Source: an uncultured Actinomycetota bacterium
Lineage (GTDB): Bacteria > Actinomycetota > Actinomycetes > CAVWCF01
Length of the DNA: 64,000 nucleotides
Assembly (NCBI GenBank): GCA_963753435.1
Contig: CAVWCF010000005.1
Span: forward strand, 96,001-160,000
Direction of reading: 5' to 3'
Shown: in pieces, positions 36,545 through 46,896 of the stretch
Numbering within the stretch: the stretch's first letter is position 1
Layout of the letters: each line of letters opens with the position of its first letter
Notes under the pieces: generated by a model
Told to the model about the DNA's origin: nothing
Databases searched by the model: none
The model's input: the letters and a program-made list of their open reading frames with translations, nothing else
Made by a program: the position numbers and the translations under genes

Positions 36545-37426
36545 ATGCCCGATCGCCGACTGCTGCTCGTCCATGCCCACCCTGACGATGAGGTCGTCGG
36601 TACCGGGGCCACGATGGCTCGCTACGCCGAGGCCGGCGCCGCGGTGACTCTGGTCACGTGCACCTCCGGAGAGGAGGGCGAAGTGCTGGTGCCCGACCTG
36701 GAACACCTGGCCGCACACCGGGAGGATCGGTTGGGGGAGCATCGCCGCGGCGAGATCGTCGGGGCTCTGGATGCGCTCGGGGTCACCGATCACCACTGGC
36801 TGGGTGGGCCCGGTCGGTATCGCGACTCCGGGATGATGGGGACTGATGCCAACAACCGCACCGAGTCCTTCTGGCGGGCCGATCTGCTTGAGGCCGCGGC
36901 CGATCTAGTCGGGGTAATCCGAGATCGCCGCCCGCAGGTGCTGATCACCTACGACGAGAACGGTCAGTACGGACACCCGGACCACATCCAGGCGCATCGG
37001 GTTGCCATGTACGGGGCGGTATTGGCGGCCGCTGCGGCGTTCCGCCCGGACCTGGGCGAGGCGTGGGACATCCCGAAGATCTACTGGACCGCTTTGCCGC
37101 ATTCCTACGTTGCCGAAGGCATCCGAGTCCTGGCCGAGTCCGGCAGCAGCGGGTTCTTCGGGGCGACTGAACCGGGCGAACTGCCCGGTGTCGTTGCCGA
37201 CGAACTCGTGACCGCTGTCGTCGACGGCACGGAGTTCGCCGACCGCAAGGTGGCCGCCCTGCGCGCCCACGCCACCCAGGTCGCCGCCGACGGACCCTTC
37301 TTCGCGATCGCCGAGGCGGTGGGCCCGGCCGCCTTCGGGCGGGAGCACTTCCGGCTGGCCAAGGGCCGCGCAGCCGTGCCGCTGGACGATGCCGGCCGGG
37401 AGACGGACCTCTTCGCCGGCACCTGA
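36545..37426 (+). CDS. mshB: GlcNAc-Ins deacetylase of mycothiol biosynthesis
   Basis: LLLVHAHPDDE, TCT.GEEGEV, YRDSGMMG, YGHPDHIQAHRV, KIYW, AHATQ, ETDLFAG; typA-linked position. Confidence 0.9.
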   Translation: MPDRRLLLVHAHPDDEVVGTGATMARYAEAGAAVTLVTCTSGEEGEVLVPDLEHLAAHREDRLGEHRRGEIVGALDALGVTDHHWLGGPGRYRDSGMMGTDANNRTESFWRADLLEAAADLVGVIRDRRPQVLITYDENGQYGHPDHIQAHRVAMYGAVLAAAAAFRPDLGEAWDIPKIYWTALPHSYVAEGIRVLAESGSSGFFGATEPGELPGVVADELVTAVVDGTEFADRKVAALRAHATQVAADGPFFAIAEAVGPAAFGREHFRLAKGRAAVPLDDAGRETDLFAGT

Positions 37427-37551: not shown

Positions 37552-39507
37552 ATGGAGACCCCCAACGCCCCCGAGTCGACCAACGGCGACACCTTCACGC
37601 ATGCGGCCGGCGACGTTCCCGTGTTGCTCGCGGCAAACACCGCCGACGTCGGCGCCTCCAGGGAACTGGCTCGCCGCCGCCGCCTGCGCACTCTCGCCGT
37701 GGTGCTGGGGGTGCCCTGCGCGTGGATGTGGTTCCGCCTGCTCAGCGGCAACCCGGTTCAGTGGGGTCTACCGCAACTGGACCCGTTCCTCCTGGTCCCG
37801 ATCCTCTTCTTCACGCTGCTTGGCGTGGTGCTCATCGGTACCACGGTCGGCGCCGGGCGCAGCCCGCACGTGCTGTACCGGCCCGAGCAGATCGACGTCC
37901 GGCTGGACGATGTAAAGGGCATCGATCCGATCAAGGAGGACGTGGTCCGCTCGCTCAACCTGTTCCTGGCGCACCGCACCTTCGCCCAGGAGATGGGCGG
38001 AACGCCGCGCCGTGGACTGCTGTTCGAGGGCGCGCCGGGCACCGGCAAGACCCACTTGGCCAAGGCGATGGCGGCCGAAGCCGGGGTCCCGTTCCTCTTC
38101 GTCTCCGCCACTAGTTTCCAGTCGATGTACTACGGGGCCACTGCCCGCAAGATCCGCTCCTACTTCAAGCAGTTGCGCAAGGCAGCACGCGCTGAGGGTG
38201 GTGCCATCGGCTTCATCGAGGAGATCGATGCGATCGCCACGGTTCGCGGCGGGATGTCGGCAACAGCCATGCCGGATGCGGCTCGGATGCAGGCACAGTG
38301 CTGCGGGGGTCTTGAAGGATTGCCGGCCGGCTACGCGCAGGCTGCCCCCCAGTCCGCCGCGGTGATCACCAACGCAGCCATGACCTCAGAGGGCGTGGGC
38401 GGCGTGGTGAACGAGTTGCTCGTGCAGATGCAGTCCTTCGACGAGCCCACCGGACTGCAGAAGGTGCACACGAAGCTCGTGGACCGGCTGAACCTCTACC
38501 TGCCGGTTCATCGGCAGTTGCGTCGGCCCGAGCCGCCCAAGACCAACGTGCTGCTGATCGCCGCCACTAACCGCGCGGACAACCTGGACCCGGCGCTGCT
38601 GCGCCCCGGCCGCTTCGACCGGCGCCTCACGTTCGACCGGCCCGGCAAGGACGCTCGAAAGGTGCTGCTGGAGCACTTCCTGGCCAAGAAGGCCCACCAC
38701 GGCGAGCTCGACACCGAAGAGCAGCGCGACACGTTGGCAGCCGCCACCCAGGGCTACACGCCGGTGATGATCGAGCACCTCCTGGACGAGGCGCTGGTCA
38801 ACGCCATGCGCCGAGACGACACCAAGATGAACCGCGCGGACATCGAGAAGGCCCGAATGGTCGAGGAGATCGGGATGGGCCAGCCGGTGGCCTACACCGT
38901 GCACGAGAAGCGACTCATCGCCACTCATGAGGCCGGACACGCAGTCGCCGCCTGGTTGGTGGCACCCCACCGTCGGCTGGAGATCCTCACCATCATCAAG
39001 CGTCGCGAGGCGCTGGGCATGCTCGCCCATGGGGACGTCGATGACGTCTACACCCGTTCGCGCAGCGAAATGCTGGCGTTGATCCAGATCGCGCTGGCGG
39101 GTCAGTGCGCGGAGGAGATCTTCTTCTCCGACATCTCCACCGGACCTGGTGGTGACCTGCTGTACGCCACCAACGTGGCCGCGGAAATGGTCGGTTCGGT
39201 CGGCATGGCCGACACCCTGGTCTCCTACGCCGCCATTCAAGGGTCGGCGCTGTCCAGCACCAACGTTGTAGGTCGCGTGCTCGCCGACCGGGACGGGCGC
39301 GACCGTGTTGAGGAGTTGCTGCAAACGCAGAAAGTGAAGATCAAGGGGATGCTGGAAGCGAATCAGCACTTGGTTGAGGCTCTTCGCGACGCCCTGTTGC
39401 AGCGACACGAGTTGATCGGACGCGAGATCACCGACGTCCTGGAAGCGGCCGGTGCCAGTTCGGTCGACGTCGTCGTGATGCCCGACGCCAAGCCGACGCC
39501 CGCCTGA
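37552..39507 (+). CDS. FtsH-like membrane AAA+ zinc metalloprotease (atypical paralog)
   Basis: Two close TM helices, Walker A GAPGTGKT, Walker B FIEEID, SRH AATNR...DPALLRPGRFDR, HEAGH, AG..AEE, STG..GDL. Confidence 0.88.
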   Translation: METPNAPESTNGDTFTHAAGDVPVLLAANTADVGASRELARRRRLRTLAVVLGVPCAWMWFRLLSGNPVQWGLPQLDPFLLVPILFFTLLGVVLIGTTVGAGRSPHVLYRPEQIDVRLDDVKGIDPIKEDVVRSLNLFLAHRTFAQEMGGTPRRGLLFEGAPGTGKTHLAKAMAAEAGVPFLFVSATSFQSMYYGATARKIRSYFKQLRKAARAEGGAIGFIEEIDAIATVRGGMSATAMPDAARMQAQCCGGLEGLPAGYAQAAPQSAAVITNAAMTSEGVGGVVNELLVQMQSFDEPTGLQKVHTKLVDRLNLYLPVHRQLRRPEPPKTNVLLIAATNRADNLDPALLRPGRFDRRLTFDRPGKDARKVLLEHFLAKKAHHGELDTEEQRDTLAAATQGYTPVMIEHLLDEALVNAMRRDDTKMNRADIEKARMVEEIGMGQPVAYTVHEKRLIATHEAGHAVAAWLVAPHRRLEILTIIKRREALGMLAHGDVDDVYTRSRSEMLALIQIALAGQCAEEIFFSDISTGPGGDLLYATNVAAEMVGSVGMADTLVSYAAIQGSALSSTNVVGRVLADRDGRDRVEELLQTQKVKIKGMLEANQHLVEALRDALLQRHELIGREITDVLEAAGASSVDVVVMPDAKPTPA

Positions 39508-39845
39508 TGCGCGATGCCTGGACTGCCGCGGGTGGCCTGATTGCGGGCATCGGTCTGGGCATCCTCGGGTCCGGTCTCGCGGAGGTCTCCTGGCCACCGG
39601 TGCTGCCCCTGGGTGCCGCGCTGAGCCTGCTGGGCCTGGTCGTCGCCGTGGTTCTGGCGGCAAACGCGGATCGGCTTGGCCCGTGGAGCCTGACGCCGAT
39701 CCTGGGCTGGGCCGCTGGGGCGGGCTGGGTGTGGAGCACCGCAGTTGCGGGCGTGGGAGTGCGCGGGTGGGCAATGGCGATCGCCGCACTGGCCGCTGCC
39801 GGCCTGTTGTTTGCAGACGGGCGGGTCTTCAGCCGACGCCCCTAG
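39507..39845 (+). CDS. Small hypothetical membrane protein (about 4 TM)
   Basis: Almost entirely hydrophobic; its ATG overlaps the FtsH-like stop (TGATG). Confidence 0.6.
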   Translation: MRDAWTAAGGLIAGIGLGILGSGLAEVSWPPVLPLGAALSLLGLVVAVVLAANADRLGPWSLTPILGWAAGAGWVWSTAVAGVGVRGWAMAIAALAAAGLLFADGRVFSRRP

Positions 39846-39853
39846 CGGCCGAT
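39828..39853 (+). promoter_or_regulatory. Putative sigma28 (FliA/WhiG)-type promoter for cheW
   Basis: TTCA-N16-GCCGAT, ending 9 nt before GTG 39863. Confidence 0.5.
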
Positions 39854-39862
39854 GCGCCTGAA

Positions 39863-40402
39863 GTGACCGACCTGAGCCGGGCCACCGACGACGAGGGCAC
39901 CCCGAACGGGGCCGACGTCGTCGCGGCCGTCGAGGACGCGCCCGTTCCCGCCGTCCCCGAGCCGCCCGCTGCGCTGCCTGCCGGCGGCGTGGTCATGCGC
40001 CTGGATCACGGTACGTACTTGGTCGACCTGGCCAACGTCGCGGAAGTGACACCGGTGCCGGAGATCACGGCCCTGCCGGGACACCCTTCGTGGTTGTGCG
40101 GCGTCGCCAACTGGCGCGGCCGGGTCCTGGCGGTGGTGGACCTGCGGCCCCTACTCGGCCTCGACCCGCACCCGCTTACCAGCGCGTCTCGACTCGTGAT
40201 CCTCACTGCCGAGGGAGTCGAAGTCGCTGTCTTGGCCGATGCCGTGCCGGGGGTCGCGGAGAAGCCGGGGCCGGCGCGGCCGGTACCGACTGCGACGTCG
40301 GGGCTGCTCTCGGCCGTCTGCGCGATCGACTCCGGTCCAGCTTCGGTGCTGGACGCCGCTGCGGTTGTCGCCCTCAGGCGGCAGTTCACTCCCGCGGCCT
40401 GA
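39863..40402 (+). CDS. cheW: CheW adaptor protein
   Basis: YLVDLANVAEV...ITALPGHPSWLCGVANWRGRVLAVVDLRPLLG, VAVLADAV. Start uncertain; GTG 39863 chosen. Confidence 0.88.
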   Translation: MTDLSRATDDEGTPNGADVVAAVEDAPVPAVPEPPAALPAGGVVMRLDHGTYLVDLANVAEVTPVPEITALPGHPSWLCGVANWRGRVLAVVDLRPLLGLDPHPLTSASRLVILTAEGVEVAVLADAVPGVAEKPGPARPVPTATSGLLSAVCAIDSGPASVLDAAAVVALRRQFTPAA

Positions 40403-40408
40403 GCCTGC

Positions 40409-40434
40409 TTCAGCCCAACCGCAGACCGTCCGAT
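40409..40434 (+). promoter_or_regulatory. Putative sigma28 (FliA/WhiG)-type promoter for the MCP-cheA genes
   Basis: TTCA-N16-TCCGAT, same spacing and the same CTTCAGCC -35 context as the site at 39828. Confidence 0.45.
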
Positions 40435-40462
40435 TAGCAACGCAGCAGAGCGTGGAGGACCG

Positions 40463-42007
40463 GTGGACCTGAGCAAGCGCATGACCGTGGTGACCGCAGT
40501 GACGTTGTGGGGCAGCGTCGCGCTTGCGGTGATGGCTGCTGCCGTCACCGACCGGTTCACCGACGCCGAGGTCAATTGGCCCATGGTCGCGGTCTGGACC
40601 GCGGTTGGCTGTGGGATCGCCGCCACCTCCACCCTGCTGGCCATCCGCGCTTGGCGCAGCGGTGCGGACACCGACACCGTGAGCCGAGTCATGCGCGCGG
40701 TCCTGATTGGGGCCGTCGTCTACATCGGCGGGATCTCGGTGGCCAGCGGCGGACTGCTCGGCGCCGGTGCCGTACTCCTGGCCGTCACCGTCCTGTTCTC
40801 ATCAATGGTCTTCAATCGGGTGGGCCTGGTCGCCTTCGGCGCCTACCTCAGCGTCACGGTGGTCGTGATCGGCGTTGTCACGGACACCTGGGTGGCCTCC
40901 GCGCTGCCGATCGCGTTGGTTGCGTTGGTTGCGCTGCCGGCGATGGTCCTGGTGGACGGCGAACTGGCCGAATCCCTCGCGTCGCACGAACGACGGGCAC
41001 AGGCCGAACGCGACCGACTGCAGGCACAGATCGCCGACCTGTCCGCTGCCTTGGCTCGCGCCGCCGACGGGGACCTGTCCGATTCCAGCGCGCTGCCACA
41101 AGGGGAGTCGGTGACAGAGCTCACGACGGCCTTGCGCCACACGCTGGTCAGCCTTCGTGGTCTGGTTGAGCAGGTCCGCAGCGGTGGTGATCAACTCACC
41201 AGCAGCGCCACCGAGTTGCTCAACGTGGCGGAGGAGCAGGCGAGCAACGCCTCGGAGCAGTCCTCGGCGTTGACCGAGACCACGTCCACGATCGAGGAGT
41301 TGGCGGCGACCGCCGCGCAGATCGCCGACACCGCAGAGGCGGTCTCCCGCTACGCGGCGGAGACGCTCAGGTACGCCGAGGATGGTCGTTTCGCCGTTCA
41401 GCAGAGCGTCGACGCGATGGATCAGATTGCGGTGCGGGTGGATTCGATCGCGGATCGGGCGGGGCGGTTGGGGGAGAAGTCTTCGGAGATCGGTCGGATT
41501 CTGGAAGTGATCGATGATCTTGCGGATCGGACGAATCTGTTGGCGTTGAACGCGGCTATTGAGGCGGCCCGGGCTGGGGAGCATGGCCGGGGGTTCGCGG
41601 TGGTGGCTGCGGAGGTGCGCAAGTTGGCGGAGCGGGCGCAGGAGTCCACGGGGCAGATTCAGGCGATCGTGGCGGAGATTTCGGCGGAGACGTCGGCGAC
41701 GGTGTTGGCGTCGCAGGAGGGGGCTGCGGAGGTTCATGCGGGGGTGGAGTTGGCCCGGGGGGTGGAGCAGGCGTTGGAGCGGATTTCGGGGATGGTGGAT
41801 GAGACGACGACTGCTGCTAAGGAGATCTCGATCGCCACGCAGCAGCAGCGCAGTGCGTCCGATCAGGTGGTGTCGGCGATGACGCAGGTGTCCGACGCCA
41901 CCCGCCAGCACGCCGCCGGATCCCGCCAGGCCGCAGCGGCCGCCGCCCAACTCAACGGGTTGGCGCACGGTCTGTCCGAATCGATTGCGCGATTCCGGCT
42001 GTCATGA
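40463..42007 (+). CDS. Methyl-accepting chemotaxis protein with multi-TM N-terminal sensor
   Basis: 5-6 hydrophobic helices, HAMP-like ADGDLS, tip [34 protein letters not shown]. Confidence 0.95.
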
Positions 42008-44049
42008 GCTGGGCCGACGACCCGGAACTGGTCGCCACCTTCCGGGCCGAAGTGGAGGAGCGGCTCGCTTCGCTCACCTCTGGCCTGCTGCAGTTGGAGA
42101 AGGTCGGCCCGGGTCGGGAGTTGCTCGACCGGCTCTTCCGGGACGCGCACACGGTCAAGGGCTCGGCCCGGATGCTGGGTCTGGACGCGGTCGTCGAGTT
42201 GGCGCACCGCTGTGAGGACGTGTTCGGCGCGGTCCGGGACCAGCGAATTGAAGTCAGCAAGGCGCTGATCGACTTGTTGTTGGCCGCGACGTCAGGCATC
42301 GAGCGGCAGTTGCCAGGTGCCGAGCAGCCGCTGGTACCGGCGGACGCTGCTGCCCTGGTGGCGGCCCTGGAAGCTGCTCGCGACGGCGCGGACGTGGTGG
42401 TGCCGCAACTCAGCGAGGCAGTGGTCGAGGCGGTTGAGCGCGCTGACCTAGTGCGCATCCCCACTTCGCGAGTGCACCTGCTGGTCGACACCGTGGGTGA
42501 GGCGGAGCTACGCGCCCGACACGTCGGTGCGTCGGCGCTGGGCATTCATCGGCAGCTCGGCGAAATCGTTCGCGAGATGGAAGCGGCCGCGGCAACCGAC
42601 ACAGCGGAGTTGTTGACCCGGCTGGAGTCGATTCACGCCGCTGCCGAAGACCTGCGCCGTGACTCTGCCGACGCCGCCGAACGGCTGGTGAATGTGCGCG
42701 ACGCGGCGATGGCGCTGGCAATGGTGCCGTTGCGCCGCGTGGTCACCGCGTTCAATCAGTTGGTGCGCGAAGTTGCGCTGTCCGGTGGTCGGGACGTGGA
42801 CCTGGTTGTCACCGGCGCCGACGTCGAATTGGACGCGCGCGTTCTTGATGGAGTCGCCGATGCGCTGCGCCACTTGGTGACGAATGCCGTCGACCACGGG
42901 TGCGCCACCCCGGCGGAGCGCATCGCGGCCGGCAAGCCACCGCGCGCGACCGTTTCACTGCACGCGCGCGCTCTGGGGGCGGCCGTCGCGATCGAGGTTG
43001 CCGATGATGGTGCGGGCATCGATGTGCCAGCCGTGCTGCAGGCAACCGGCGCATCGGATCTGCTCGAAGCCCTCTGTCAGCCGGGGTTCTCCACCAGGTC
43101 CACGGTGACGACCACGTCCGGGCGCGGGGTTGGCCTGGATGTCGTGCGCCGAGCCGTTCAAGGACTCGGCGGCACCCTGCAGGTGGAGACATCGGGCGCG
43201 GGGACAAGGTTCACGCTGACCGTGCCGGTCACGCTCGGGGTCATGCGCTGTCTGATTGCCCGCATCGGGTCGCAGCGATATGCGATTCCGGTGGCCAACA
43301 TCGTGGAGTCGTTGGACCTGCGCACCACAGCCGTATACGACGTCGCTGGACGTCCGTGCCTGCTTCGTGGCGACGACCTGGTCCCGATTGCCTCGGTCGG
43401 GTCCGCACTCGCGGTGGAGTCCGGTTTCGGGGACCGGGCCGTTCTCGTCCGCCGTGGTGATCAGTTGTGGGCCTGGGCCGTTGACGAGTTGGTCGCCGAG
43501 CGCGAAGTTGTCGTCAAGGAGTTGGGCCCGTTCCTGGGTCGCAGCTCGAGATACCCAGGCGCCAGCTTGGACGAAGAAGGCCGCATCATCCCGCTGTTGG
43601 ATCTGCGGGACCTGGCCCCACACGACGGCAAGACCCCGCCCCTGGCCGCCGCCGCAGGATCCGCCGCGGAGCCCTCGCCGGCGGCCCGGATTCTCATCGT
43701 GGAGGACAGCGCCGGGGTCCGCGAACTGCAGCGCAGCATCCTCAGCGGCGCGGGGTATGAGGTCGACACCGCTGTTGACGGGACCGAAGGTGCAGCCAGG
43801 CTGACCGGCGAACCGGTCGATCTGGTGGTCTCCGACGTGGAGATGCCCGGCATGGACGGTTTCCGGCTGACCCGGACGATCCGGCGCACCCCCGGCTGGG
43901 AGCAAGTGCCCGTTGTGATCATGACTTCCCGTGGGGAAGAGGCCGACCAGCGCGCCGGCCTGGACGCAGGAGCTGACGCCTACTTGCTCAAGAGTTCGTT
44001 CGACTCGTCCGAACTCATCAGTACCGTCCGGCGGCTCGTAGGACGCTGA
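42004..44049 (+). CDS. cheA: CheA-type histidine kinase with C-terminal receiver (Hpt-dimer-HATPase-CheW-REC; WspE/ChpA-like)
   Basis: [11 protein letters not shown] (Hpt), [22 protein letters not shown]...[10 protein letters not shown], CheW domain, ILIVEDS...[10 protein letters not shown]. Confidence 0.94.
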
Positions 44050-44066
44050 CCGGTTCAGGAGGTGCC

Positions 44067-45035
44067 ATGCCCAAGGTCGTGATTGCCGACGACAGCCCCA
44101 CGCTGCGCCGCATCGTCGCCGCGGTCTTGGAGCGCGAAGGCTTCGAGGTAGTGAGCGTCGAGAACGGCATCCAAGCTGTTCAGGCGGTGTTCCGGGAGCA
44201 GCCGGACGCGGCGGTCCTGGACATCCAGATGCCCAGGTTGTCCGGTTATGTGGCAGTTCGCGTCCTGAAGGACGACTGGCAGACAGCGGACATCCCAGCC
44301 CTGCTGCTCACCAGCCTCGACGCCGCTGCCGACCGGTACTGGGGCAGCCTGGTTGGAGCCGAGGGCTTCCTCACCAAAGACTTCGAGGCGCCGGAACTGG
44401 TTTCGGCGGTGCAAGCCGCCATCAATGCCGCCGACGTGACTCGCGGTGGTCGTGCGCGGCACACGCCCGAACCGGTTGATCTGACCGACGATGACGTGTT
44501 CGCCCGTGTCAGTGACCTGCTTGACCGCAAGCTGTTTGAGTCGCAGGTGACCGCGGACGTCACGGCCATTCCGGCCGAGGCGCACGGATTCGAAGAGACC
44601 GTCGCGGCCGTGCTGCAGGTGGTCGCCCGGATCGCCGAGTACGACCTGGCCGGGGTGCTGATGCTGGACGACCTGGCCGCCTACTTGTCGGTTACGCGGG
44701 AGACGTCGACCCAGCAGTACGGGGAGTTCTTGACAGCGATGGCCGACGCCGCCGCGCAGGCCACCGGTGAGGCGGTCGGCGTGCACGACGTCACGCCGCG
44801 GATCGCCGACCCGGACGCCTTCCTCGGTGCGGAGGATGACGGCGAGATGGCCACCTTCTTGTCGATGCCGCTGCGGGCGCGCGGACGTGTCGTGGGGGTG
44901 TTGGGGCTGTCGAGCGCAGCCGCCAACGCATTCGGCGAATCCTCGCTCACCACGCTGCGGTTGATCGACTCCCCGGTGGCAGTCGTGGTCGACAACGCTC
45001 GCCTGCACCGGGCGGCCGCACAGCCCACCGCCTGA
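44067..45035 (+). CDS. Response regulator, REC plus C-terminal GAF-like domain, no enzymatic or DNA-binding output
   Basis: IADDS, LDIQMP, LLTS...DRYWG..VGAEGFLTK; C-terminal FLSMPLRARGRVVGVLGL...NAFGE...DNARLH. Confidence 0.85.
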   Translation: MPKVVIADDSPTLRRIVAAVLEREGFEVVSVENGIQAVQAVFREQPDAAVLDIQMPRLSGYVAVRVLKDDWQTADIPALLLTSLDAAADRYWGSLVGAEGFLTKDFEAPELVSAVQAAINAADVTRGGRARHTPEPVDLTDDDVFARVSDLLDRKLFESQVTADVTAIPAEAHGFEETVAAVLQVVARIAEYDLAGVLMLDDLAAYLSVTRETSTQQYGEFLTAMADAAAQATGEAVGVHDVTPRIADPDAFLGAEDDGEMATFLSMPLRARGRVVGVLGLSSAAANAFGESSLTTLRLIDSPVAVVVDNARLHRAAAQPTA

Positions 45036-45117: not shown

Positions 45118-46896
45118 ATGTCAGTGCCTCCAGTCGACTCAGCGCCCGGTTCCAGGCCCTCTCGCGCCCTGGTTCTGGTTGGTGCTGCCCTGGCCGCCGC
45201 GGCAGTCACATACCTACTGCTCGTCCTGACCAACGGGGACATTCCCCGGGGCACGAGCGTCCTGGGGATCCCGCTGGACGGTCAGTCCACGGACGAGGCG
45301 CTGGCCACATTGAACGCCGAGGCTGATCGGGCCGTTGTACCGATTCCGGTGACGGCTGGCGCGGTTAGTGCCGATTTGGACCCAGCGCAGGCGGGGCTGA
45401 CCTGGGACATCCCGGCAACCGTTGCTGCGGCCGCAAAGCCGGTCTGGAACCCGCTGCTGCTGCTCGGCGGACTGTTCGGCAGCAGCGACGTGGATCCGGT
45501 CGTGACGGCAGATGCGGAGTCCTTGCGCACGGAGTTGGACGCCCTCGCTGCCGACGCCGATGTGCCCGTCGTAGAGGGGTCGGTGCAGTTCGCCGACGGG
45601 GTGGCAACGGCGATCGAACCGGTTCCTGGCTCGCAACTGGACCTGGACGCCGCCGCCGAGGCGGTCATCGCCGGGTACCTGCGCACGCAGGACCCGGTCG
45701 AACTGCCCATGCGGGAGGTGCCGGTAACCATCTCCGCCGACGAGGTGCAGCGGGCGCTGACGGAGTTTGCCGAGCCGGCGTTGTCGGCGCCGGTGGCGGT
45801 CACCGTGGGCGGCCAAACGGTCACCGTCACACCGGAGCAACTGTCCGCGGCGCTGAGCGTGGAGGCGGTCGACGGCAGTCTGCAGCCGCGGCTGGACGCC
45901 GACGCGCTGGTCGCGGCGTCGCCGGGGCTTACCGACGTTGAGTCGCCGGCCACGGATGCCGTGATCGACGTGGTCGGGGGTGCCGTGACCATCGCCCCGT
46001 CCAAACCGGGACGGGAGTTCGATACCGCGCAGCTGGCCGAGGCAGTGCTGCCGGTACTGACCGAAACCGGGTCCGGGCGGCAGGCTTCGGCGGTGCTGAG
46101 GACCCTTGAGGCCGACCTCACGACTGCGGAGGCGCAAGCCTTGGGGGTGGTCGAAGAGGTCTCCTCTTATCGCACGACCTATCCATATGCCGCCTACCGG
46201 CTGACGAACATCCACCGCGCGGCGGACCTGATCGACGGTGTGCTGCTGTTGCCCGGTGAGACCTTCAGTCTCAACGAAACCGTGGGGGAGCGCACCGAGG
46301 CCAACGGTTTCGCCAAAGGCACGATCATCAAGGACGGTCGCTTCTTCGAGGACTTCGGCGGCGGCGTCTCCCAGGTGGCGACCACCGCGTTCAACGCAAT
46401 GTTCTTCGCTGGCCTCGAGGATGTTGAGCACAAGCCGCACTCGTTCTACATCAGCCGCTACCCGGTCGGGCGCGAAGCCACCGTTGCGTGGCCGGTCGTC
46501 GACTTGCGGTTCCGCAACGATTCGCCGCACGGGGTACTGGTGAAGACCAGCTACACCGACAGATCGGTCACCGTGTCGCTGTGGAGCACCAAGGTCTGGG
46601 ACATCGAATCCATCACCGGCCCGCGCACCGATCGCAAGGCACCAAAGACCGTGTACGACCCCTCCGACAAGTGCTTGCCGCAGTCGCCGGTGGACGGGTT
46701 CCGCATCGTCGTCACGCGGGTCTTCAAGAAGGGCGACGAAGAGGTCAAGCGCGAGGACTTCAAGACCACCTATCGGCCGGCTGACCGGGTGCTTTGCCGT
46801 GCCGAGCCGAAGCCGGCGCCATCGCCATCGGCTTCGCCTTCCGCCAGTGCGTCGCCGTCGCCTTCGCCGACCCCCACACCGACGGCCTCGCCCTAG
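45118..46896 (+). CDS. VanW-domain membrane protein with putative peptidoglycan-binding repeats
   Basis: N-terminal TM; RLTNI..AA..IDG.LL.PGETFSLNETVGERT..NGF, GGGVSQVATT.FNA, PHSFYISRYP.GREAT, DLRFRND; (PS)n tail. Confidence 0.88.
   Translation: MSVPPVDSAPGSRPSRALVLVGAALAAAAVTYLLLVLTNGDIPRGTSVLGIPLDGQSTDEALATLNAEADRAVVPIPVTAGAVSADLDPAQAGLTWDIPATVAAAAKPVWNPLLLLGGLFGSSDVDPVVTADAESLRTELDALAADADVPVVEGSVQFADGVATAIEPVPGSQLDLDAAAEAVIAGYLRTQDPVELPMREVPVTISADEVQRALTEFAEPALSAPVAVTVGGQTVTVTPEQLSAALSVEAVDGSLQPRLDADALVAASPGLTDVESPATDAVIDVVGGAVTIAPSKPGREFDTAQLAEAVLPVLTETGSGRQASAVLRTLEADLTTAEAQALGVVEEVSSYRTTYPYAAYRLTNIHRAADLIDGVLLLPGETFSLNETVGERTEANGFAKGTIIKDGRFFEDFGGGVSQVATTAFNAMFFAGLEDVEHKPHSFYISRYPVGREATVAWPVVDLRFRNDSPHGVLVKTSYTDRSVTVSLWSTKVWDIESITGPRTDRKAPKTVYDPSDKCLPQSPVDGFRIVVTRVFKKGDEEVKREDFKTTYRPADRVLCRAEPKPAPSPSASPSASASPSPSPTPTPTASP

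Follow-up and report, generated by a model that had tools for sequence, protein, structure and literature searches.

How does a chemosensory gene cassette work if neither adaptation enzymes nor an enzymatic output are encoded beside it? The question is raised by six co-oriented genes (positions 37552-45035) in a 64,000-nt stretch, here called the window, of contig CAVWCF010000005.1 (assembly GCA_963753435.1) from an uncultured actinomycete, genome G000 here, in which an FtsH-like protease and a small hydrophobic protein precede CheW, a methyl-accepting chemotaxis protein (MCP), a hybrid CheA and a REC-GAF response regulator (Table 1). An initial annotation, made from the letters alone, had read these genes as a stripped-down system in which a dedicated protease either replaces methylation-based adaptation or is itself the output. 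We consider it very probable that the window instead holds one half (receptor, kinase and regulator) of a complete pathway of the 'alternative cellular functions' (ACF) type, split over two loci and served by cognate CheR and CheB. The protease is more probably a neighbour than a component, and type IVa pili are the output towards which we lean.

A chemosensory pathway split over two loci

The window genome (2.17 Mb, completeness 98%, contamination 0.19%) contains one CheB match (E 1e-57) and one CheR match (E 7.6e-46), both at C1:1219567-1222079 within a cheB-cheR-cheW cluster. Here CheB (357 aa) combines REC and methylesterase domains, CheR (480 aa) carries TPR in addition to its CheR domain, and a further CheW has 143 aa. 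Motifs of the catalytic regions, whose functional roles we assume, are intact in CheB, CheR, CheA and REC-GAF, and the CheA has its Hpt histidine, N and G boxes and REC aspartate all present. Because a tblastn search of the genome yields only one CheA (along with three MCPs), there is no second kinase pathway in which CheB and CheR could work. The cluster adjoins disA/radA in the same gene order in eight of eight relatives fetched, with clpC upstream in the seven whose stretch showed it.

Co-occurrence across the class points to the same partnership. We searched five proteins in an evenly drawn class sample of 250 genomes passing a completeness filter of at least 90%, and tallied the protease in 104, CheA in 84, CheR-TPR in 79, DUF4388 in 85 and PilB in 116. 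A CheR-TPR orthologue occurs in 79 of the 84 genomes with a window-type CheA versus 0 of the 166 others; the five genomes that lack a match (G018, G035, G121, G154 and G158) are bins of 220-480 contigs. Among the first 40 relatives the corresponding counts were 16 of 18 with CheA and 0 of 22 without. CheR matches in G148 (34% identity) and G231 (32%) were rejected as cognate since they lie in other gene contexts. The che cassette thus counted (84/250 genomes) spans 18 families, and its overlap is 0.94 with CheR-TPR, 0.86 with DUF4388, 0.77 with the protease and 0.61 with PilB. Named carriers among the matches listed are uncultured bins of Sporichthyaceae, Frankiaceae, Acidothermaceae, Motilibacteraceae, Mycobacteriales, Nanopelagicales and unassigned Actinomycetes.

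Several decisions define these counts. Genomes whose sole protease match was a distant paralogue (18 genomes, 30-36% identity) or whose sole PilB match was a paralogue (10 genomes, E above 1e-150) were dropped before the tally, as was the CheA of G129; G104 was counted with the che genomes since a contig end truncates its cheA. G032 contributes a single count to all five class totals and is the source of locus L046 (one DUF6113 hit and the first row of alignment A4), and G008, G030, G036, G043, G264, G308, G345 and G375 are also in the tallies; no conclusion rests on these or on G032. As the sampled genomes are kin and the searches scored 4-8 candidates per genome, no test statistic is given.

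The observation that no cheR or cheB lies beside the cassette was correct, but the absence of adaptation enzymes does not extend to the genome. The stripped-down system fails on the conserved second locus, a finding that the initial annotation had itself named as counting against it. More generally, 'missing CheR/CheB' in a window can mean a split operon.

Two orphan MCPs are encoded elsewhere in the genome (Table 1), and both likely feed the single CheA. One of them shares 77.5% identity with the window receptor across 298 residues of the signalling domain, and its extracellular region is long.

Receptor, kinase and regulator

The matched span of the window MCP is 28 residues longer than those of the Tar, Tsr, Tap and Tcp (citrate receptor) profiles and equals that of CtpM. 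We take the enteric reference receptors to be 36H and CtpM to be 40H, and if these reference heptad classes hold, the window MCP would be a 40H receptor. No extracellular sensor domain was found in it. It carries one methylation consensus site (residues 274-283), and one or more such sites are present in 35 of the 39 distinct receptors encoded at the fetched loci. In three relatives (L070 of G143, L071 of G189 and L072 of G046), the interval between cheW and cheA is filled by receptor genes in tandem, from four up to about eight of them, and a 2.9 kb contig (L053; G026 C102) holds a second window-type mcp-cheA pair, reflecting either duplication or bin contamination.

In the ACF class, CheA has a C-terminal receiver domain. 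The 40H type is named as the ACF receptor type in PMC10746217, and CheR-TPR and multidomain regulators are tied to ACF pathways in PMC3447774. With a CheA of Hpt-HATPase_c-CheW-REC architecture, a CheR-TPR, a REC-GAF regulator, a receptor of 40H length, and CheB and CheR at the second locus, the pathway is, judged by these features, probably of the ACF type. The type IV pilus (Tfp, or Pil-Chp) class has a CheA with multiple Hpt domains; the window CheA has one, and its regulator is REC-GAF and not a single-domain CheY-like protein. A non-flagellar role, as first annotated, agrees with the hybrid CheA, the multidomain regulator and the lack of any FlhA or flagellin match in the 98%-complete genome, a search whose controls matched in 4 of 14 cases. 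At L066 (G129), another kind of hybrid CheA is encoded together with a dCache receptor and CheR-TPR, a second ACF-like type in the class; this CheA was rejected as an orthologue of the window CheA given 38% identity and a different gene order.

The regulator terminates after its GAF domain in all 16 aligned homologues, with length conserved at about 320 aa and D8, D9, D52 and K104 invariant, so that the reported lack of an enzymatic output holds for the regulator. Since the protein ends after GAF, REC-GAF would act by binding; a truncated REC-GAF-GGDEF was considered and rejected, the end point being the same in the 16 homologues. Its structure model (mean predicted local distance difference test, pLDDT, 90.5) shows REC, linker and GAF, and Foldseek returned generic REC and REC-GAF structures with TM-scores of about 0.35-0.38 over the query. 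A plasmid search for REC-GAF found no close relative, every match lying below 60% identity.

A candidate output at the type IVa pilus locus

The genome encodes a full, aroE-linked type IVa pilus locus. Upstream of its pilB lie genes for a Roadblock protein (mglB), a DUF4388 (PATAN) protein in which no REC match was found, and a small GTPase (mglA). The distribution of DUF4388 follows that of the che cassette: both occur in 78 of the 250 class genomes, DUF4388 only in 7, che only in 6 and neither in 159, and among the 116 genomes with PilB the corresponding numbers are 75, 6, 1 and 34. Three of the ten families that have the protease and no che have DUF4388. Ten pilus loci were fetched, and DUF4388 and mglA are present in all four from che genomes and absent between aroE and pilB in four of the six from che-less genomes (G010, G052, G024, G019).

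In Synechocystis, PATAN (DUF4388) binds PilB1 and PilC (10.1101/2021.06.11.447907), and the original task proposed for the Frz system is the control of pili through recruitment of MglAB (PMC4546325). Because DUF4388 tracks che, PATAN binds PilB1 and PilC, and Frz offers a precedent with MglAB, we somewhat favour type IVa pili as the predicted output of the pathway.

A number of observations weigh against this. DUF4388 has outlived che in G148, G231, G095, G003, G009, G069 and G149, and in two of these (G003 and G149) the che-less pilus locus itself retains DUF4388 and mglA. Conversely, six che genomes have no DUF4388 match and eight no PilB orthologue at the cut used, and no MglA orthologue was found in the four of the DUF4388-lacking che genomes tested. 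The four GGDEF domains in the window genome, together with the repeats in its PilB described below, leave a route through cyclic di-GMP (c-di-GMP) open, and the pilus link itself derives from co-occurrence among related, non-independent genomes. Five of the six che genomes that lack DUF4388 also lack a PilB orthologue, and in the sixth pilB lies 1 kb from a contig start; the missing DUF4388 and PilB would fit assembly gaps in fragmented bins.

The PilB of the window genome begins with an MshEN-like motif at residues 3-26 and a second in tandem at residues 32-55; we take both to resemble c-di-GMP-binding motifs, which suggests that c-di-GMP may control how pili extend in this monoderm. The genome also encodes a PilT/PilU-like ATPase and three more secretion ATPases whose gene contexts are Tad-like (Table 1). 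A broader search of the genome for cheR, cheB, pil and fli genes, as the initial annotation had envisaged, thus recovered the adaptation enzymes and a pilus locus, and neither FlhA nor flagellin.

An atypical FtsH-like protease

Like FtsH (M41), the window protease has a membrane anchor, an AAA module and a zinc site of HEXXH plus a distal Asp, and is placed in that family with its activity predicted. Its N-terminal membrane hairpin has a short loop only. Walker A spans residues 160-167, a Walker B variant (FIEE) 221-224, the arginine-finger region 337-357 and HEAGH 459-463, with the distal Asp at 535. H459, E460, H463, D535, the Walker A Lys/Thr, the catalytic Walker B Glu and the Arg finger are invariant in 37 aligned orthologues. 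Canonical FtsH, in contrast, has a periplasmic domain, MDGF and a Walker B Asp, none of which is found here: Glu takes the first Walker B position in 29 of the 37 orthologues, MDGF is replaced by MQSF, and the score against TIGR01241, the canonical FtsH equivalog, is 282.8 bits, below the cut-off of 600. A separate canonical FtsH, about 30% identical to the window protease, is encoded in the same genome. The best Foldseek matches of the structure model are FtsH, FtsHi, YME1 and AFG3L2, and a protein homologue search named the close orthologues only as 'ATP-dependent Zn protease', 'FtsH' or 'AAA family ATPase'.

Canonical FtsH also lacks two insertions found in the AAA module here (Table 1). 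The first is a Cys-containing low-confidence loop that is modelled as disordered, and the second a conserved helical segment before sensor 1; either could serve for docking or regulation. About 25 class genomes encode another FtsH-like paralogue that is more distant (30-36% identity), for example at L031 (G004); in G180 (C5:26921-28639) and G231 (C43:15152-16843) it lies about 10-11 kb from pilB.

The protease is more widespread than its chemosensory neighbours and probably older. In a phylum-wide sample of 250 genomes, used for the protease outside the class, an orthologue occurs in 62 genomes, and cheW, MCP or cheA genes lie near it in 0 of 20 fetched loci of other classes; CheA outside the class never exceeds 42% identity, and in the seven genomes with both CheA and protease the two are on different contigs. 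Within the class, 22 genomes in 14 families carry the protease without a window-type CheA, four of five tested protease-only genomes are without any MCP, and 10 of 28 protease families have no che member. Two same-genus comparisons (G131/G148 and G180, G207/G231) each show one member that lacks the cassette but keeps the protease, the order after loss being mshB and the protease, followed by flavin reductase, vanW or further genes. In L159, L161, L162 and L069 the protease and cheW are 2-8 kb apart because of insertions, and in L163 and L171 the stretch upstream of DUF6113-cheW is occupied for more than 5 kb by unrelated genes, which in L163 lie on the opposite strand. The whole mshB-to-dapC block is syntenic, including flavin reductase and vanW. 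The simplest reading is that the protease is old and belongs to a conserved chromosomal block within which the cassette came to lie, and in our judgement the FtsH-like protein is quite probably a syntenic neighbour with its own job, not one dedicated to the che pathway.

Other observations run counter to this reading. The protease is found in 82 of the 84 che genomes, and the two exceptions stop at contig edges just upstream of cheA. In the locus survey, which covered the best 80 of 233 matches (named loci), it is adjacent and co-oriented in 43 of the 45 loci with at least 1.5 kb upstream of cheW, at a median distance of 597 nt from cheW, and in 7 of 46 the distance is below 300 nt, indeed within 250 nt, leaving no room for DUF6113. 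All 18 che families also have the protease and DUF4388, so nesting cannot separate the partners, and because every che family has the protease a functional tie is still allowed. The linkage first noticed in the window is real within the class and absent from the fetched loci of other classes; a role of the protease as output or partner remains conceivable given its near-constant presence in che genomes, and a role dedicated to the pathway is made unlikely by its many che-independent carriers.

A model for pathway function and its rivals

The account we put forward, to which we incline by a narrow margin of belief, is that a split hybrid-CheA pathway steers type IVa pili through PATAN and MglAB, with the protease a neighbour. 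Integral-membrane 40H receptors would sense a membrane or surface cue and, with the two CheWs, control CheA autophosphorylation, and methylation of the receptor by CheR-TPR and its demethylation by REC-CheB would provide adaptation. The REC domain of CheA itself may serve as a phosphate sink, with the phosphoryl group passing to REC-GAF. Phosphorylated REC-GAF would then bind the mglB–DUF4388–mglA module, encoded directly upstream of pilB-pilT-pilC-pilA, and this binding could set the place or time of pilus extension, as Frz does via MglAB and cyanobacterial PATAN regulators via PilB. A wider proposal, about which we are more doubtful than confident, is that a circuit for navigating surfaces, ancestral to deep-branching and mostly uncultured Actinomycetes, is spread over the conserved mshB-, clpC- and aroE-linked loci and would confer Frz-like directed type IVa pilus motility on a monoderm phylum; the stand-alone REC-GAF and PATAN would together form a split PatA-type output, and the atypical FtsH might possibly reset a component.

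The same split, methylation-adapted pathway might end differently, with REC-GAF acting on a diguanylate cyclase or another unlinked partner, as in Wsp, and reaching pili or adhesion via c-di-GMP, or something else. The four GGDEF domains of the genome and the two-repeat MshEN domain of PilB would accommodate such a route, as would the persistence of DUF4388 after che loss in seven genomes; ACF regulators, moreover, often have GGDEF/EAL outputs (PMC3447774). REC-GAF is fused to GGDEF in none of 16 aligned homologues, however, and neither che locus of the window genome contains a GGDEF gene, and we regard this ending as unlikely, if still a serious contender. It is more improbable that the protease is the pathway output, phosphorylated REC-GAF acting as adaptor or regulator to gate the supply of substrates to a protease with an additional, che-independent role. 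RssB and CpdR gate substrate delivery to ClpXP in this manner. The frequency and adjacency of the protease in che genomes are what this idea would predict, as are the window gaps of -1 and 17 nt between protease, small protein and cheW and the retention in G035 of protease-DUF6113-cheW-mcp-cheA under a different upstream gene, and the unusual AAA insertions could serve as docking sites. Nesting, on the other hand, is expected from descent where nearly all che lineages have the protease; the protease belongs to the syntenic mshB-to-dapC block and is parted from cheW by the 2-8 kb insertions in four loci; and the model of the AAA insertion region draws as well on orthologues from genomes without such a CheA.

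A minimal system without CheR and CheB, in which receptor turnover by a dedicated protease would stand in for methylation, has little left to recommend it beyond the absence of cheR and cheB beside the cassette and the 5 of 84 che genomes without a CheR-TPR match. Against it stand the motif-intact CheB and CheR-TPR in the same genome and their co-occurrence in 79 of 84; the receptor keeps its methylation consensus, and the protease persists in genomes without an MCP (four of five tested). We consider a replacement of methylation by proteolysis highly improbable. The picture that emerges is of a split ACF-type pathway that is widespread, has an unusual REC-GAF regulator and a link to type IVa pili that can be tested, and lies alongside an uncharacterised FtsH paralogue.

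Comparison with known systems

The nearest catalogued system is that of Acidothermus cellulolyticus 11B, an ACF entry which, like the window system, has a hybrid CheA-REC, CheR-TPR, two CheWs, a 40H receptor and a multidomain regulator. Table S3 of PMC10746217 places its CheA and one CheW in the accession run WP_011720706/0708 and its CheB, CheR and other CheW in the run WP_011719060-62. Both halves have been catalogued separately for Acidothermus; the two runs fit the same split, with orthology inferred, and a named Acidothermus sp. bin (L158) has the window gene order. That survey covered flagellated species and found ACF in six, and its accessible text mentions no output, split, REC-GAF or protease.

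FrzZ is a tandem REC protein, and FrzCD is cytoplasmic. Frz of Myxococcus xanthus resembles the window system in its MCP, two CheWs, hybrid kinase, methyltransferase and methylesterase. An MglA/MglB module encoded beside the type IVa pilus genes co-occurs with che here and may, as in Frz, receive the signal. The Frz genes are clustered, however, whereas the system described here is split, its receptor is membrane-embedded and its regulator is REC-GAF; the 15 genomic REC matches include no adjacent pair within one frame, as a FrzZ-type tandem would require. The GTPase probably differs too, standing in an MglB-PATAN-MglA cassette, an order that PMC4316618 assigns for Acidothermus (Acel_1323) to group 5 and not group 1. 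In cyanobacterial PatA-type (Tax/Pix) systems, PATAN is an output domain of chemosensory systems and binds PilB1 and PilC (10.1101/2021.06.11.447907); there it is fused to REC in the che operon, whereas here DUF4388 lies at the pil locus, apart from REC-GAF.

The Wsp system of Pseudomonas has a membrane 40H receptor, a hybrid CheA and two CheWs. These are shared with the window system, as is CheR-TPR (WspC; PMC3447774). WspR, in contrast, is REC-GGDEF, and the window regulator is without a cyclase domain. Type IV pili in some actinobacteria are under WhiG, as PMC12871210 indicates.

Actinomycetes are mostly regarded as non-motile, and chemosensory surveys have been made mainly in flagellated species (PMC10746217). 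The pathway described here occurs in about a third of the class sample (84/250), including a genome without a match to flagellin or FlhA. If type IVa pili are indeed steered via MglAB and PATAN, directed surface movement may be common in actinomycetes, and cultured Acidothermus makes the idea testable. The protease, for its part, marks a phylum-wide, well-conserved FtsH paralogue of which no characterisation turned up in our literature searches. These searches went by title and abstract opening, with most subscription papers outside their scope, and within them no paper joined the three loci, described REC-GAF or studied the FtsH paralogue.

The gene cassette and its surroundings

All six open reading frames were confirmed on the plus strand as first annotated, tightly packed between mshB and the VanW gene, with their domains and without internal stops on translation. 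From mshB to the VanW gene the spacings are, in order, 125, -1, 17, 60, -4, 17 and 82 nt; the TGATG overlap (1 nt) of protease and small protein and the ATGA overlap (4 nt) of MCP and CheA can both be read in the sequence. The small protein is hydrophobic as reported, but a hydropathy scan gives three segments above threshold instead of the four transmembrane (TM) segments first proposed. Its positional homologues match DUF6113, and hhalign to them (probability 44%, E 2e-4) makes it a likely divergent member.

The order ftsH-like, (DUF6113), cheW, mcp(s), cheA, REC-GAF recurs across many families, and because of this recurrence the arrangement is not due to chance. We rejected a recent horizontal arrival of the cassette in view of the wide synteny and a GC content (0.68-0.70) the same as that of the flanks. 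A promoter scan was uninformative (no sigma-70 sites; three terminator-like sites versus 3.1 expected), as were four metatranscriptomes on co-transcription, which covered 5-10% of words and whose listed contigs (151-319 nt) included none across the protease-cheW junction.

Table 1. Location of the cassette, its flanks and linked features in the window genome (plain numbers, window positions; C1, C2 and C5, contigs of G000; L055, fetched locus)
Feature	Location	Strand	Remarks
mshB	36545..37426	+	TIGR03445 342.6 bits, above cut-off; flanking landmark of conserved chromosomal block, outside pathway
FtsH-like AAA+/M41 protease paralogue	37552..39507	+	651 aa; Pfam AAA and Peptidase_M41
Protease AAA insertion 1	38248-38388		residues 233-279
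Protease AAA insertion 2	38437-38544		residues ~296-331
Small membrane protein	39507..39845	+	112 aa, hydrophobic; no Pfam match; likely divergent DUF6113 member
CheW	39863..40402	+	PF01584, E 4.7e-25
MCP	40463..42007	+	PF00015 MCPsignal; 6 predicted TM segments (TM and site scan); 40H-length signalling domain (profile comparison)
Hybrid CheA	42004..44049	+	single Hpt, HATPase_c, CheW, REC (Pfam); sole genome CheA by tblastn
REC-GAF response regulator	44067..45035	+	Pfam; without enzymatic domain
VanW/PG-binding protein	45118..46896	+	VanW and PG_binding_4 domains (Pfam); flanking landmark
cheB-cheR-cheW cluster	C1:1219139-1222079	-	between clpC and disA/radA
Type IVa pilus locus (pilB, pilT, pilC, pilA, pilD, pilM and following genes)	C1:375207-388631		aroE-linked
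PilB	C1:386967-388631		same as L055:13968-15632
Orphan MCP, similar to window receptor	C5:67655-69685
Orphan MCP	C1:848949-850514
Three secretion ATPases in Tad-like contexts and one PilT/PilU-like ATPase	C1:4226-5617, C1:1280982-1281809, C2:6884-8158, C1:884998-886101

Where the che cassette is missing, the VanW gene stands closely 3' of the protease, as in the gene orders of G003, G010 and G231. A flavin reductase-like gene (L037:6760-7278, and most of L098-L177), absent from the window, follows REC-GAF on its 3' side in most relatives and persists after che loss.

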